DNA of 64,000 nucleotides from Escherichia coli (GTDB lineage Bacteria; Pseudomonadota; Gammaproteobacteria; Enterobacterales; Enterobacteriaceae). The notes under the pieces were generated by a model. It had not been told where the DNA came from. It made no database searches and saw only the letters and a list, made by a program, of their open reading frames with translations. The first letter of the stretch is position 1. Every line of letters starts with the position of its first letter. Shown in pieces: positions 964 to 5,834 of the stretch. Position numbers and translations under genes: made by a program. The stretch lies in the NCBI RefSeq assembly GCF_003334785.1, contig NZ_QOWV01000006.1. One strand, written 5' to 3'.

Positions 964-1038
964 TTACCACCATCCCAGCTCAGTGCCGAGTACGACAATA
1001 ATCGCCACACCCATCATAATAATCGTTGTTTTTTTCAT
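964..1038 (-). CDS. yoaJ: YoaJ, 24-aa small membrane protein (MKKTTIIMMGVAIIVVLGTELGWW)
   Basis: Hand translation of minus strand; below the 60-aa track cutoff; matches remembered YoaJ. Confidence 0.75.
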   Translation of the reverse strand: MKKTTIIMMGVAIIVVLGTELGWW

Positions 1039-1040
1039 CT

Positions 1041-1139
1041 TTATGCTCCCGGGGCAGCATAGCCGCCAATAAAAAACCATGCTAAAAATACGACCGCTGT
1101 AATGAAGATTACAACCGGAAAAATAATACCGATTCGCAT
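1041..1139 (-). CDS. yoaK: YoaK, 32-aa small membrane protein (MRIGIIFPVVIFITAVVFLAWFFIGGYAAPGA)
   Basis: Hand translation of minus strand; immediately upstream of yoaJ, downstream of yeaP. Confidence 0.75.
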   Translation of the reverse strand: MRIGIIFPVVIFITAVVFLAWFFIGGYAAPGA

Positions 1140-1171
1140 GTTATCACCAATCAAAAGGATGTGAATACGCC

Positions 1172-2197
1172 TCAGGAATGTAGCGCTGGATGCGCGACAA
1201 AAGGTGTTTTCTGTTTGTGTTTTTTCTCCTGATACATCGCAATATCGGCAGCATGCAGGGCACTGTCTGCATCGGTTGTTTCAGGATCGACTTCTACTAT
1301 GCCAAGACTGGCACCGGGATAATACAAATCAACATCACCTAAGTGATATTCTCCACGTATTTGCTGCTGAATGCGTTCTCGCAGCGACGAAATATCCGCA
1401 TTCTCGTTGTTTAGTGAAACAACTAAAAACTCATCACCGCCGAGACGACCAATAACTTCGCCATTTTGCTGGAGCGTATTAAGGCGCTCGCCAACCTGAA
1501 TGAGAAACAGATCGCCACTATTATGACCAAAACGATCATTGATTAATTTGAAGTTATCCAGATCGATAAACGCGATCATTATCTTATGGTTAAGATGCCG
1601 GGCGAGGGAAAACAGTGTCGTCAGATTTTCAAAAATCGCCCGCCGATTCGGTAGCCCGGTTAACGAGTCGGTATACGATTGCGCAATCAGCGCAGCATTG
1701 GCTTCGCGCAGCTGTTCAACCAGTGCCTCTTTTTGAATATATTGTGCAATCAGTCCGGCGAATAACTGTAAAACCTGTTCCGCGCGTTCACTCCACTGGC
1801 GCTTCTCACTGCTGGCGGCGCAAAGCGTGCCATAGAATGATCCATCCGGTAAGTGAATTGGCGTGCTCAGAAATGTGGTGATGCCAAGATTGCGTGCCGC
1901 AATACAGTCACCCCAACGGTCGGGGACTTCATCGCTGAAAAAGCAGTTTTCATCAATGGCGCGTTTGCATAACGAGTAATCCCACGAGACGGTAAAATTC
2001 TCCGGGATGTACATTTTCTGGCTGTTACGGGCAAACATAATATGCTGCAGGCGCGCTTCGACATCCACTTTGGTCAGGTAGGTTGATTCCATATCAGTGA
2101 CCATTTCCAGCATCTCCAGAAGCTGTCGGACCAGACTTTCCAGTGACTGTTCTTTGGCAAGGGATTGCGAGACGCGGGCGATAATCTGATCTGACAC
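1172..2197 (-). CDS. yeaP: Diguanylate cyclase YeaP/DgcP (GAF + GGDEF), 341 aa from GTG start
   Basis: Track ORF 1172..2326 trimmed to GTG at 2195-2197 to give the remembered 341 aa; GGDEF motif RLGGDEF present. Confidence 0.85.
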   Translation of the reverse strand: MSDQIIARVSQSLAKEQSLESLVRQLLEMLEMVTDMESTYLTKVDVEARLQHIMFARNSQKMYIPENFTVSWDYSLCKRAIDENCFFSDEVPDRWGDCIAARNLGITTFLSTPIHLPDGSFYGTLCAASSEKRQWSERAEQVLQLFAGLIAQYIQKEALVEQLREANAALIAQSYTDSLTGLPNRRAIFENLTTLFSLARHLNHKIMIAFIDLDNFKLINDRFGHNSGDLFLIQVGERLNTLQQNGEVIGRLGGDEFLVVSLNNENADISSLRERIQQQIRGEYHLGDVDLYYPGASLGIVEVDPETTDADSALHAADIAMYQEKKHKQKTPFVAHPALHS

Positions 2198-2379
2198 GGA
2201 ACAACTCCAGGATACGGCGGGTAAATGCTGATTATTTAATCTTTGCAGGCATGATAAAACATCATCAACAAAGATGAAACAAGACGTAATATGTTTTGAG
2301 TGAATGTAATAAAAATAGTGCTGCAAAACAAAACGATACCGCGATACTCTAATCTTGGATAAATATGTGAGATCAATAA

Positions 2380-2634
2380 ATGAAAATTATCAGTTTTGTT
2401 CTGCCTTGCTTGCTGGTCCTGGCTGGTTGTTCAACCCCTTCTCAGCCAGAAGCACCTAAACCGCCGCAGATTGGTATGGCAAATCCGGCGTCGGTCTATT
2501 GCCAGCAGAAGGGCGAGACGCTCATTCCAGTGCAGACAGCGCAAGGGGTCAGCAACAATTGCAAATTACCGGGCGGTGAAACGATTGATGAATGGGCATT
2601 GTGGCGGCGTGACCATCCGGCTGGTGAAAAATAA
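2380..2634 (+). CDS. yoaF: YoaF, DUF333 lipoprotein (84 aa; lipobox LAGC)
   Basis: Track ORF; signal peptide with lipobox. Confidence 0.85.
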   Translation: MKIISFVLPCLLVLAGCSTPSQPEAPKPPQIGMANPASVYCQQKGETLIPVQTAQGVSNNCKLPGGETIDEWALWRRDHPAGEK

Positions 2635-3057: not shown

Positions 3058-4239
3058 TTAGCGAATTTCTTTGTCTCTCCCGGCGCAAAGTCCGAAAATC
3101 GCCATCAGTAGTGAAAGTATGGCAACACCCATAAGTGGTACAGACCAGTTACCGTTAGCATCGTGTATTTTACCCATCAGCGGCGGCCCACAGGCTGCCA
3201 ACAAATACCCGACGGATTGTGCCATCCCCGAGAGTGCCGCCGCCTGATGCGCAGAACTAGCCCGCAGACCAATGAACGTCAACCCCAGTATCATTGTTGC
3301 GCCGGAACCAAAACCGAAAAGCAGAGTCCAGGTGATCGCGTGCGCTGGCATAAAGCAGAGCCCAACCGCGCCCACTGCGCACATCAAGGCAACGAACGCT
3401 GCAATACCACGCTGATCTTTCACATGATGTAAGAAAAGTGGGATCAGCAAACCGGGTGCTGCTGTGGCTAGTTGCAGCAAACCATGCAGTGAACCCGCCT
3501 GTGCTTCGCTATAGCCGTGACTGATGAGGATCGCCGGAAGCCAGCCAATAATCACGTAATAGACCAGTGAGTTGATCCCAAGAAACAATGTGACCTGCCA
3601 GGCAAGCGGCGAACGCCAGATACCCCGAGTATGTAAGGCGCGCGAGGTACTCAAATTTGCATGTTGTTGACTTCGCCACTGTGGCAGCCATAAAAAAAGA
3701 GCCAGCAGAGGAAAACACATCAGCATGAGCAACGCGCCTTGCCAGCCAAAACCGTTCAAAGCCAGCGGCACGACCATAGCCGATCCCAGTGCCGCTGCAG
3801 CTCCCATTGTCAGGGAATATGCGCCGGTAAGTCTGGCGACGGAATGAGGGAAATCGCGTTTAATTAATCCTGGCAGTAAGACATTGCCTAATGCAATCCC
3901 ACCGCCAATGACCGCTGTACCGCCAAATAATAAGTAAGGCGAAGGGAGAGAGCGAATTGCGATACCAGCACAGATCAAAAGTAACGCGGCAAACAGGCTA
4001 CGTTCCATACCAAAACGTCGCGCTACCGGGGCAGCCAAAGGTGAGATTAGCGCAAAGGCCAATAATGGCAGGGTGGTCAATAAGCCGGTTTGCGCTGTCG
4101 TCAGCGAGTAAGCGGAACGAATCGTATCCAGTAACGGTGCTGCGCCGGTAAAGGTGACGCGTAATGTTGTGGCAATCATCAGAATGCCAGCGATAAGGAC
4201 AATCCTGTTTTTGCCGCTTAATGAAGTTGAACAGGTCAT
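3058..4239 (-). CDS. yeaN: MFS transporter YeaN/NimT (CynX family), 393 aa
   Basis: Track ORF; multi-TM MFS-like sequence; divergent from the AraC regulator. Confidence 0.85.
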   Translation of the reverse strand: MTCSTSLSGKNRIVLIAGILMIATTLRVTFTGAAPLLDTIRSAYSLTTAQTGLLTTLPLLAFALISPLAAPVARRFGMERSLFAALLLICAGIAIRSLPSPYLLFGGTAVIGGGIALGNVLLPGLIKRDFPHSVARLTGAYSLTMGAAAALGSAMVVPLALNGFGWQGALLMLMCFPLLALFLWLPQWRSQQHANLSTSRALHTRGIWRSPLAWQVTLFLGINSLVYYVIIGWLPAILISHGYSEAQAGSLHGLLQLATAAPGLLIPLFLHHVKDQRGIAAFVALMCAVGAVGLCFMPAHAITWTLLFGFGSGATMILGLTFIGLRASSAHQAAALSGMAQSVGYLLAACGPPLMGKIHDANGNWSVPLMGVAILSLLMAIFGLCAGRDKEIR

Positions 4240-4335
4240 ATGCTTCTCATTGTTACAAACGAGGCTGTACCTTACCGTTTTTATTGTTATGTTGAATCAA
4301 GCTAAAATGACAAATTATCGCTAAGTTCGGACAAA

Positions 4336-5157
4336 ATGATGCACAGGTTGAATCTCAATGGCTATGAACCCGACCGACACCATGAAGCCGCGGTCGCATT
4401 TTGTATTCACGCCGGAACGGATGAGTTAACCAGTCCTGTACATCAGCACCGCAAAGGACAGCTGATACTGGCGCTACATGGTGCAATTACCTGTACGGTG
4501 GAAAATGCTTTGTGGATGGTGCCGCCACAATATGCGGTTTGGATACCGGGCGGGGTGGAACATAGCAATCAAGTAACAGCTAATGCTGAACTCTGTTTTC
4601 TGTTTATCGAACCCAGCGCAGTGACAATGCCGACAACATGTTGCACATTGAAAATATCGCCCTTATGCCGGGAATTAATTTTAACCCTGGCAAACAGGAC
4701 GACGACTCAGCGTGCTGAGCCAATGACCCGCAGATTAATTCAGGTCCTGTTTGATGAACTCCCTCAGCAGCCACAACAACAGCTGCACCTGCCCGTTTCT
4801 TCTCATCCTAAAATCCGCACGATGGTGGAGATGATGGCGAAAGGGCCTGTCGAGTGGGGGGCATTGGGGCAATGGGCTGGCTTTTTTGCGATGAGTGAAC
4901 GCAATCTTGCCCGACTGATAGTAAAAGAGACGGGGTTGAGTTTTCGCCAGTGGCGTCAGCAGTTACAGCTGATTATGGCGCTTCAGGGATTAGTGAAAGG
5001 CGATACTGTACAGAAAGTTGCTCATACGCTGGGGTATGATTCAACAACGGCCTTTATTACTATGTTTAAGAAAGGCCTGGGGCAAACGCCAGGCCGATAT
5101 ATTGCGAGATTAACTACTGTTTCCCCACAATCAGCGAAACCAGACCCGCGGCAATAA
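4336..5157 (+). CDS. yeaM: AraC-family regulator YeaM/NimR, 273 aa
   Basis: Track ORF; C-terminal AraC-type HTH; divergent to yeaN. Confidence 0.85.
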
Positions 5158-5560
5158 GCGGCCCAACCGGTACGCCGCGAAACAGCGCTACGCCTAAAAC
5201 AGTGCCTACCAGCAGCCCGGCGACCAGTTGCGGCTGGCTGCCCATTAACGTCACGCCGCGCCCACCCAGCCAGGAGACAATCACGCCTACTGCAATCGCC
5301 ACCAGTGATTTCCAGTTCAGAAACGAGTGAATCAAGGTTGAGGGCGGTAGCGTCCCGCTGGCGATGGGGGCCATAACGCCAATCGTCAGAATGATTATCC
5401 CGATACTTAGCCCCTGTTTTTCAATCCACGGAAAAAAGGTGCTTAACGGTGTGACGCGGACAATGATTAACACCAGAATTGAAACGGCGACAGTGGTGTT
5501 ATGACTGATAAAGCCCAGCGCAGCTAACCCGAGCAGGATCAGCAAAGTGACATCAAACAT
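5114..5560 (-). CDS. yeaL: YeaL, DUF441 inner-membrane protein, 148 aa
   Basis: Track ORF; hydrophobic throughout; 3-prime end overlaps yeaM convergently by 44 nt. Confidence 0.85.
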
Positions 5561-5729
5561 CGTGGTTTCCTTGCCAAAAAATAATAAGCCTGCTTACTTT
5601 ACGCTTGCTGCAGGAAGGAAGTAGAAAATCTTTACGTTTTTTGCATAAAAAATCAGGCGAACTGTCATCAAACTGCCATTTGTGCACGCTAACAATAACG
5701 TGAAAACAGCTATCTCCCGGGGGCATGCT

Positions 5730-5834
5730 ATGAACGATCAAATGTTTGTCGAGACACTGATTATCACGTCATCGTTTTTTGCCATTGCTGTTGTACTGGT
5801 TTTGTCCGTTCTTCTTATCGAACGGACCGGCTAG
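5730..5834 (+). CDS. yoaI: YoaI, 34-aa small membrane protein ([34 protein letters not shown])
   Basis: Hand translation; ATG 5730, TAG 5832-5834; below track cutoff. Confidence 0.7.

Follow-up and report, generated by a model that had tools for sequence, protein, structure and literature searches.

Three small membrane protein genes, yoaJ, yoaK and yoaI, in an Escherichia coli chromosome segment, and YoaK-family open reading frames behind prophage repressor genes

Can three open reading frames (ORFs) of 24, 32 and 34 amino acids (aa), each with one hydrophobic stretch, be distinguished from the many chance frames around them, and if they are genes, with what might their products work? We asked this of yoaJ, yoaK and yoaI in a stretch of 64,000 nucleotides (nt) of Escherichia coli DNA (contig NZ_QOWV01000006.1 of RefSeq assembly GCF_003334785.1), hereafter the window, which is a segment of the chromosome running from yeaR through dgcJ and further. 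A preliminary description, made from the sequence and a list of its ORFs, had proposed all three as single-helix small membrane protein genes. We put the probability that they are real, expressed small membrane protein genes at about 95%. The names, the coordinates and the detection of all three proteins are already known, as are the regulation and the target of YoaI; the present analysis adds a cross-genus test for selection, the signals that point to coupling of yoaK and yoaJ, and the prophage context of the YoaK family. The three genes and two of their neighbors are the following.

964-1038, minus strand: yoaJ, with its ATG at 1038 and its stop codon TAA at 964-966; 24 aa, MKKTTIIMMGVAIIVVLGTELGWW; "protein YoaJ" in RefSeq.
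1041-1139, minus strand: yoaK, with its ATG at 1139 and its stop codon at 1041-1043; 32 aa, MRIGIIFPVVIFITAVVFLAWFFIGGYAAPGA; "YoaK family small membrane protein" in RefSeq.
5730-5834, plus strand: yoaI, with its ATG at 5730 and its stop codon TAG at 5832-5834; 34 aa; "small membrane protein YoaI" in RefSeq.
1172-2197, minus strand: dgcP (yeaP), a GAF-GGDEF diguanylate cyclase gene (RefSeq) and the first gene of the dgcP-yoaK-yoaJ unit.
5835-6338, minus strand: yeaK, encoding a mischarged aminoacyl-tRNA deacylase (RefSeq) and convergent to yoaI.

Annotation was taken from a RefSeq genome that is identical to the window across this stretch (locus offset +101), in which RefSeq and its Prokaryotic Genome Annotation Pipeline (PGAP) place yoaJ, yoaK and yoaI at identical positions. 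Each product matches an NCBIfam model over its whole length: YoaJ matches the equivalog NF011343 with 60.4 bits (cutoff 54; residues 1-24 on model positions 1-24), YoaK matches NF033821 with 69.1 bits (cutoff 32; 1-32 of 32) and belongs to Pfam family PF28021, and YoaI matches the equivalog NF041475 with 79.8 bits (cutoff 45; 1-34 of 34). The window's YoaI is the YoaI of E. coli (NF041475; Vellappan et al. 2025, Sci Signal / bioRxiv 10.1101/2024.09.13.612970), its protein matching the RefSeq coding sequence without a difference, and the window's YoaK and YoaJ are likewise those of E. coli, identical in sequence and in their place downstream of dgcP. The region of about 5.5 kb around the three genes was found in 5,421 of 5,426 complete E. 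coli genomes. Mean Kyte-Doolittle hydropathy in the best 17-residue window is 2.26 for YoaJ, 2.98 for YoaK and 2.81 for YoaI, with one strongly hydrophobic stretch in each, and with these lengths and a single helix the three proteins fall within the class of small membrane proteins (at most 50 aa and one spanning stretch).

The names, coordinates and single-helix character given in the preliminary description therefore agree with the sequence, the ORF list, RefSeq and NCBIfam, and the spacings that it reported were also recovered: the spacer between yoaK and yoaJ, downstream of yeaP, is exactly 2 nt (1039-1040), and the yeaK stop codon begins at 5835, abutting the last base of the convergent yoaI stop codon at 5834. 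The distance from the dgcP stop codon (1172) to the yoaK start is 32 nt. The description of the three genes as missed by the ORF track holds for the length-limited track that its author had in hand but not in general, since RefSeq and PGAP annotate them, curated NCBIfam models represent them, and tagged proteins had been published earlier.

Short frames are plentiful in this DNA. A six-frame list gives 135 ORFs of at least 20 aa that overlap the first 7.5 kb of the window, so the presence of an open frame does not by itself exceed chance, and the evidence for genes is conservation, purifying selection and published detection of the proteins. Orthologues were collected by scanning one genome per species with the neighboring DgcP, which gave 26 loci from Escherichia (several species), Citrobacter, Enterobacter, Lelliottia, Pseudenterobacter, Kosakonia and Symbiopectobacterium, and by searching these loci with tblastn for the small proteins. 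YoaJ was recovered in 25 of the 26 loci, YoaK in 23 and YoaI in 20, always in the syntenic position. Lengths are held closely: yoaJ has 24 codons (25 in Kosakonia), yoaK always has 32, and yoaI has 32-34. YoaK is 81-100% identical across the orthologous loci, and between genera its identity is 81-94%, compared to 62-70% for DgcP; the orthologue profile has the invariant motif M-R-x-G-I-x-F-P-V...A-V-x-F-L-x-W-F...G-G-Y-x-x-P-G. The proportions of nonsynonymous (pN) and synonymous (pS) differences, obtained as Nei-Gojobori counts over all pairs of distinct sequences, and the numbers of variable columns at codon positions 1, 2 and 3 are as follows.

yoaJ: pS 0.63, pN 0.17, pN/pS 0.26; variable columns 13, 10 and 21 of 23.
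yoaK: pS 0.61, pN 0.06, pN/pS 0.10; variable columns 11, 8 and 30 of 31.
yoaI: pS 0.57, pN 0.15, pN/pS 0.27; variable columns 20, 10 and 28 of 30.

Synonymous sites are near saturation in all three genes (pS about 0.6), and purifying selection, which the preliminary description had named as a check, is evident across genera in each. When the same alignments were read in the other five frames as a control, the annotated frame had the lowest ratio and no in-frame stop for each gene. The other frames gave pN/pS values of 0.19-4.8, or 0.72-4.8 where third positions are not shared with the sense frame, and they contain stops except for the yoaJ anti+1 frame and the yoaK +2 frame. One result counts against yoaJ as the gene at its position, namely that the antisense frame sharing the yoaJ third positions is free of stops in all 24 distinct sequences, with a pN/pS of 0.41. 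An antisense ORF of 29 aa over yoaJ (983-1072, plus strand) was considered as the primary gene and was rejected, as its weaker selection signal fits a shadow of the sense frame; judged by the alignments, its openness would most simply be the expected shadow of yoaJ.

There is next to no probability that the three are chance open frames in intergenic or 3'-untranslated-region (3'-UTR) DNA, hydrophobic through T-rich sequence and making no protein: such a view would suit the abundance of short ORFs and the sigma-70 promoter scans, whose hits were no more numerous than in shuffled sequence (one, near yoaK, overlaps its start codon), but length and frame are kept across six genera with pN/pS of 0.10-0.27 at saturated synonymous sites, alternative frames have stops or ratios above 1, and tagged proteins have been detected in published immunoblots, so that the tests for selection and the immunoblots already refute it.

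The annotated starts, which had been called plausible, are backed by Shine-Dalgarno motifs and by comparison across genera. These motifs and a hairpin downstream of yoaJ lie at the following positions.

1143-1148, minus strand: yoaK Shine-Dalgarno motif GGTGAT, 3 nt upstream of the ATG, as read from the sequence.
1046-1050, minus strand: yoaJ Shine-Dalgarno motif GGGAG, within yoaK codons Pro30-Gly31-Ala32.
5719-5723, plus strand: yoaI Shine-Dalgarno motif GGGGG, 6 nt before the ATG, with GGGG or GGAG conserved at that distance elsewhere.
919-944, strand not assigned: GC-rich hairpin between the convergent yeaQ and yoaJ, with 10 pairs of which 6 are GC (terminator scan).

For yoaK, all 24 other loci have a motif of the GGTGA or GGGGA type equally far from the start, and for yoaJ the position is occupied by GGGAG, GGGGG or GGAGC across the loci. 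In Escherichia and Citrobacter 2 nt lie between the yoaK stop codon and the yoaJ start codon, whereas in Enterobacter and Lelliottia the two codons touch (TAAATG or TAAGTG), leaving a gap of 0 nt. From this gap of only 0-2 nt, and from the location of the yoaJ ribosome-binding site within yoaK, we infer that yoaK and yoaJ are translationally coupled. The same placement means that conservation of the YoaK C-terminus may in part serve yoaJ translation.

These starts also bear on whether the products might be the longer ORFs that the six-frame list gives as the first starts after a stop, of 38 aa (ATG at 1080) for yoaJ, 37 aa (TTG at 1154) for yoaK and 50 aa (GTG at 5682) for yoaI. This is very improbable. 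The yoaK stop codon stands in frame right before the yoaJ start in Enterobacter and Lelliottia, against the 38-aa form, and upstream of the yoaK ATG several genera show either a stop in frame or no start codon whatever, against the 37-aa form. The 50-aa extension of yoaI would overlap the gene's own promoter, a published peak of initiating ribosomes lies at the yoaI translation start, and the 34-position NCBIfam model fits the 34-aa product end to end.

On the dgcP-yoaK-yoaJ strand the scan found no terminator anywhere in the region, the dgcP-yoaK gap included. An RNA-sequencing (RNA-seq)-based operon yeaP-yoaK-yoaJ is predicted in OperomeDB and matches the gene order of the window. A hairpin at the position of 919-944 is kept in 24 of the 26 loci; on the yoaJ strand a T-run comes after it in Enterobacter and Lelliottia, and in E. 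coli this T-run is poor. The hairpin probably terminates the dgcP-yoaK-yoaJ transcript. On this model the dgcP transcript would extend through yoaK and yoaJ as its last two cistrons and end at the hairpin. The Enterobacter and Lelliottia loci (L009-L021), unlike those of Escherichia, have in common a short, conserved stem, CCGTA-CACTC-TACGG, between the dgcP stop codon and yoaK, some 25-40 nt ahead of the yoaK ATG.

Could the conservation downstream of dgcP instead belong to an RNA element, such as a 3'-UTR structure, a small RNA (sRNA) or a terminator, with the ORFs incidental? The conserved hairpin just downstream and the small Enterobacter stem (CCGTA-N5-TACGG) would agree with such an element, but we regard it as highly unlikely. 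Variation accumulates at third codon positions (in yoaK, 30 of 31 compared to 11 and 8 at positions 1 and 2), which is the signature of a protein, and this codon periodicity is the opposite of what RNA structure would lead one to expect; the proteins have moreover been detected. Rfam gives no match in the region, and Rfam and transfer RNA scans of window positions 1-7000 were both without a match.

What the proteins do is clearest for YoaI, whose promoter contains the following site.

5663-5680, plus strand: Pho box (PhoB binding site) TGTCATCAAACTGCCATT in the yoaI promoter, letter for letter the PhoB site from chromatin immunoprecipitation sequencing (ChIP-seq) that is listed for yoaI/yeaL.

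In the study that combined PhoB ChIP-seq with RNA-seq, yoaI RNA was 12,266 in the wild type compared to 28 in a phoB deletion, which supports direct regulation. Tandem TGTCA repeats about 11 bp apart also lie upstream of yoaI in Citrobacter, Enterobacter and Lelliottia, and yoaI has the arrangement that defines members of the Pho regulon, a PhoB box of tandem TGTCA-type repeats about 11 bp apart that overlaps the -35 region. PhoB dependence of yoaI transcription has also been reported by Vellappan et al. (2025, 10.1101/2024.09.13.612970), together with a strong signal from initiating-ribosome profiling (Ribo-RET) at the translation start. Chromosomally encoded YoaI with a sequential peptide affinity (SPA) tag was found in the membrane fraction and was raised at low Mg2+ independently of PhoQ and post-transcriptionally (10.1101/2024.09.13.612970). 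Ribosome profiling and epitope tagging, the experimental checks that the preliminary description had suggested, were thus already in print, the former and an SPA fusion for YoaI and tagged proteins for YoaK and YoaJ.

The same work identified a target for YoaI. In two-hybrid assays YoaI interacted strongly with the histidine kinase EnvZ and not with PhoQ or PhoR (10.1101/2024.09.13.612970). Deletion of yoaI lowered an OmpR-dependent omrB reporter 1.4-2-fold, and overexpression of YoaI raised an OmpR-dependent reporter more than 7-fold in an envZ-dependent manner (10.1101/2024.09.13.612970). Interaction with EnvZ and increased OmpR-dependent transcription were reported from the two-hybrid assays and from omrB, ompF and ompC reporters (10.1101/2024.09.13.612970). 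The substitutions E31A and E31Q each abolished both the interaction with EnvZ and the effect on the reporter (10.1101/2024.09.13.612970). Ser26, Val27 and Glu31 are invariant in all 22 YoaI sequences that we recovered (the window and 21 others). The N-terminus of YoaI is acidic (MNDQMFVE) and its tail reads ERTG, in agreement with the cytoplasmic position published for Glu31.

The gene yoaI is a separate transcription unit that PhoB, bound at the Pho box at 5663-5680, switches on under phosphate limitation. The protein is inserted as one helix with its acidic N-terminus outside and its ERTG tail inside and, by the published mechanism, binds EnvZ through the invariant Glu31, raising EnvZ-OmpR output. 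In this way YoaI connects the regulation of porins and the envelope with phosphate and Mg2+ stress, acting in trans and not on a neighbor. The proposal that such proteins modulate neighboring transporters or sensors fails for YoaI, as envZ is not among the genes that flank yoaI in the window.

The position of yoaI relative to its neighbors is itself conserved. Adjacency of yoaI and yeaK held wherever both were found, in 18 of the 20 scanned loci with yoaI, and their conserved abutment is a convergent arrangement without known functional meaning. Between yeaK and yeaL, yoaI was absent in one Citrobacter (L012, 5608-5759) and in Kosakonia (L023, 1931-1952). About half of the Enterobacter and Lelliottia loci have about 3.8 kb between yoaI and yeaL, with yoaI still adjoining yeaK. 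On the far side of yeaL, nimR (4336-5157, plus strand) and yeaL (5114-5560, minus strand) are convergent, and their 3' ends overlap by 44 nt (5114-5157), an overlap that is kept in Citrobacter and Enterobacter loci.

For YoaK and YoaJ the conserved neighbor is not a transporter. It is the cytoplasmic GAF-GGDEF diguanylate cyclase DgcP, whose Pfam domains are GAF_2 (residues 17-155) and GGDEF (residues 175-330), with no membrane domain; the linkage is strong but not universal. In published work, a YoaJ fusion is membrane-integral and a topology with the N-terminus inside and the C-terminus outside is cited as experimentally confirmed, and chromosomally tagged YoaK-SPA was detected, being among the more weakly expressed proteins of the first small-protein set. 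YoaJ has been reported as induced by diamide. YoaK and YoaJ are also "class II" substrates of the intramembrane protease RseP, cleaved in vitro and inconsistently in vivo. Their N-termini, MKK in YoaJ and a basic MR in YoaK, predict that the N-terminus is inside. Both are single-pass membrane proteins, YoaJ being reported with its N-terminus inside and C-terminus outside and YoaK predicted from its basic N-terminus to have the same orientation.

Because the genes are tightly linked, we guess that YoaK and YoaJ are membrane partners that localize or tune the otherwise soluble DgcP. We rate this guess, drawn solely from gene linkage, at somewhat under even odds. Several observations weigh against our reading of YoaK and YoaJ, of which this guess is a part. 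The RseP cleavage results for YoaK and YoaJ vary with the tag, a strain lacking the whole yeaJ-yeaV block is equal to its parent in growth rate and competitive fitness, and no phenotype or partner is reported for YoaK or YoaJ in the literature. The linkage also has exceptions. Kosakonia cowanii (L023, 11015-11128) and Enterobacter sp. EA-1 (L027, 11020-11123) keep yoaJ downstream of a dgcP homologue, and in these two genomes no YoaK-like ORF was found in any of the three frames of the spacer; the presence of yoaJ without yoaK implies that the two small genes can be lost separately. Symbiopectobacterium has a dgcP homologue and neither yoaK nor yoaJ. Finally, members of the YoaK family are found downstream of a MASE5-GGDEF gene and of prophage repressor genes, the latter with no GGDEF gene nearby.

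These further members of the family came from a search with the YoaK orthologue profile against 1.84 billion representative proteins, which gave 51 hits. Many of the representative hits of 40-97 aa, among them apparent YoaK-YoaJ fusions, proved to be frameshift or read-through artefacts and were not counted as real variants. Among the genuine diverged members, three contexts were found. In the first, a YoaK-family ORF lies behind a GAF-GGDEF gene of the dgcP type and is followed by a yoaJ-like ORF (L030, L039 and L040). In the second, a YoaK-family ORF (L034, 4037-4135) lies 11 nt after a MASE5-GGDEF cyclase gene that is architecturally unrelated to DgcP, and yoaJ is absent. In the third, which was unexpected, the ORF belongs to a lambdoid or Rac-like prophage and lies directly behind the gene for a CI-type repressor (HTH_3, in some cases with Peptidase_S24), again with no yoaJ (L028, L029, L033, L035, L037 and L038). 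The diverged ORFs behind CI-type repressor genes, of 32-36 aa and on the repressor strand, and the corresponding ORF of phage HK106 are located as follows.

L028, 4001-4105, repressor strand: YoaK-family ORF behind a CI-type repressor gene.
L029, 4001-4099, repressor strand: the same.
L033, 4001-4111, repressor strand: the same.
L035, 3046-3150, repressor strand: the same.
L037 and L038, 3001-3102, repressor strand: the same.
L032, 2501-2599, repressor strand: the same.
L031, 2501-2599 (JQ086369.1, 30464-30559), minus strand: YoaK-like ORF of phage HK106, between the repressor gene and the annotated PL promoter and ahead of a HicAB pair.

At eight phage or prophage loci, HK106 included, a YoaK-family ORF thus stands directly behind a CI-type repressor gene. 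Phages mEp234 and mEp506 also carry one, and the ORF is unannotated in the GenBank records of HK106, mEp234 and mEp506; a Klebsiella phage carries a YoaK-family ORF that is mislabelled "CI transcriptional regulator". The phage copies score 44-68 bits against the curated YoaK model NF033821 (cutoff 32), and their pN/pS is 0.2-0.5 both among themselves and relative to the chromosomal gene. In six E. coli genomes PGAP gives phage-type copies the name "YoaK family small membrane protein". The phrase "YoaK family" was not found in the searchable literature, and the occurrence of these ORFs behind phage repressor genes appears to be new, a modest lead rather than a result.

The strongest alternative to the partnership with DgcP is that YoaK, and perhaps YoaJ, works independently of the cyclase as a portable membrane module, for example in modulating a conserved envelope protein or in phage exclusion, with the place behind dgcP a convenient slot for expression. 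We consider this possible without being probable. It draws on the ORFs behind CI-type repressor genes at the eight phage or prophage loci, which pass the NCBIfam cutoff, on the ORF behind the unrelated MASE5-GGDEF cyclase gene, and on the finding of yoaJ and yoaK each without the other. Against it, the order and spacing of dgcP-yoaK-yoaJ are very stable in Enterobacteriaceae chromosomes, and the GGDEF genes found ahead of YoaK genes are of two different architectures, a hint of a connection with cyclic di-guanosine monophosphate (c-di-GMP). Nor is there an independent link to defense: PHROGs and PADLOC hold no family that matches YoaI, YoaJ, YoaK or the phage YoaK-like ORFs, a result that speaks neither for nor against a defense role.

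A more specific form of this alternative, in which YoaK is a portable 32-aa membrane module belonging to a family of phage morons expressed in lysogens and the chromosomal dgcP-yoaK-yoaJ unit is a domesticated relative or the source, is tentative and on balance unlikely. If it were true, lysogens would make the phage copies, whose role could lie in superinfection exclusion or in tuning a component of the host envelope.

Work on the function of YoaK and YoaJ can start from two results, the tight and apparently coupled arrangement of the two genes behind a soluble diguanylate cyclase and the recurrence of YoaK-family ORFs behind prophage repressor genes. YoaK and YoaJ rank among the better-conserved small proteins of E. 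coli without an assigned function. More generally, a reading made from sequence can recover real genes of fewer than 35 aa that length-filtered ORF tracks drop, and a simple cross-genus test of nonsynonymous against synonymous change (dN/dS) cleanly separates the three genes from the many chance ORFs that surround them.

Two other features of the window were noted. At positions 1-75 an IS421 (IS4-like) element ends, truncating yeaR (75-323), of which the C-terminal part is left and the N-terminus is gone, so the strain lacks an intact yeaR; of 5,426 complete E. coli genomes, 452 have the same IS421-yeaR junction. Rfam also matches the 43-nt sRNA ES036 (CssrF) at 56505-56547 and 63651-63693, both on the minus strand, with 42.9 and 55.5 bits, above the gathering threshold.

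The small proteins described here can be set beside known systems. In phage lambda, rexAB occupies the slot behind cI and is expressed in the lysogen. The phage YoaK-family ORFs resemble rexA-rexB in position, being encoded on the repressor strand in the interval from the repressor gene to PL, which matches the annotated layout of HK106. They differ from Rex in that they have no sequence similarity to it and are only 32-36 aa long, and expression from PRM and a part in exclusion are putative for them. Among small regulators of membrane histidine kinases, MgrB acts on PhoQ and MzrA on EnvZ. For YoaK and YoaJ, unlike these two, no kinase or other target is reported. YoaI is like MgrB and MzrA in being a short single-pass protein that binds a membrane histidine kinase and changes its output. 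No sequence relationship to either was seen. MzrA is longer, at 127 aa, and MgrB regulates negatively, whereas YoaI, with 34 aa, activates its kinase and depends on a glutamate on the cytoplasmic side.

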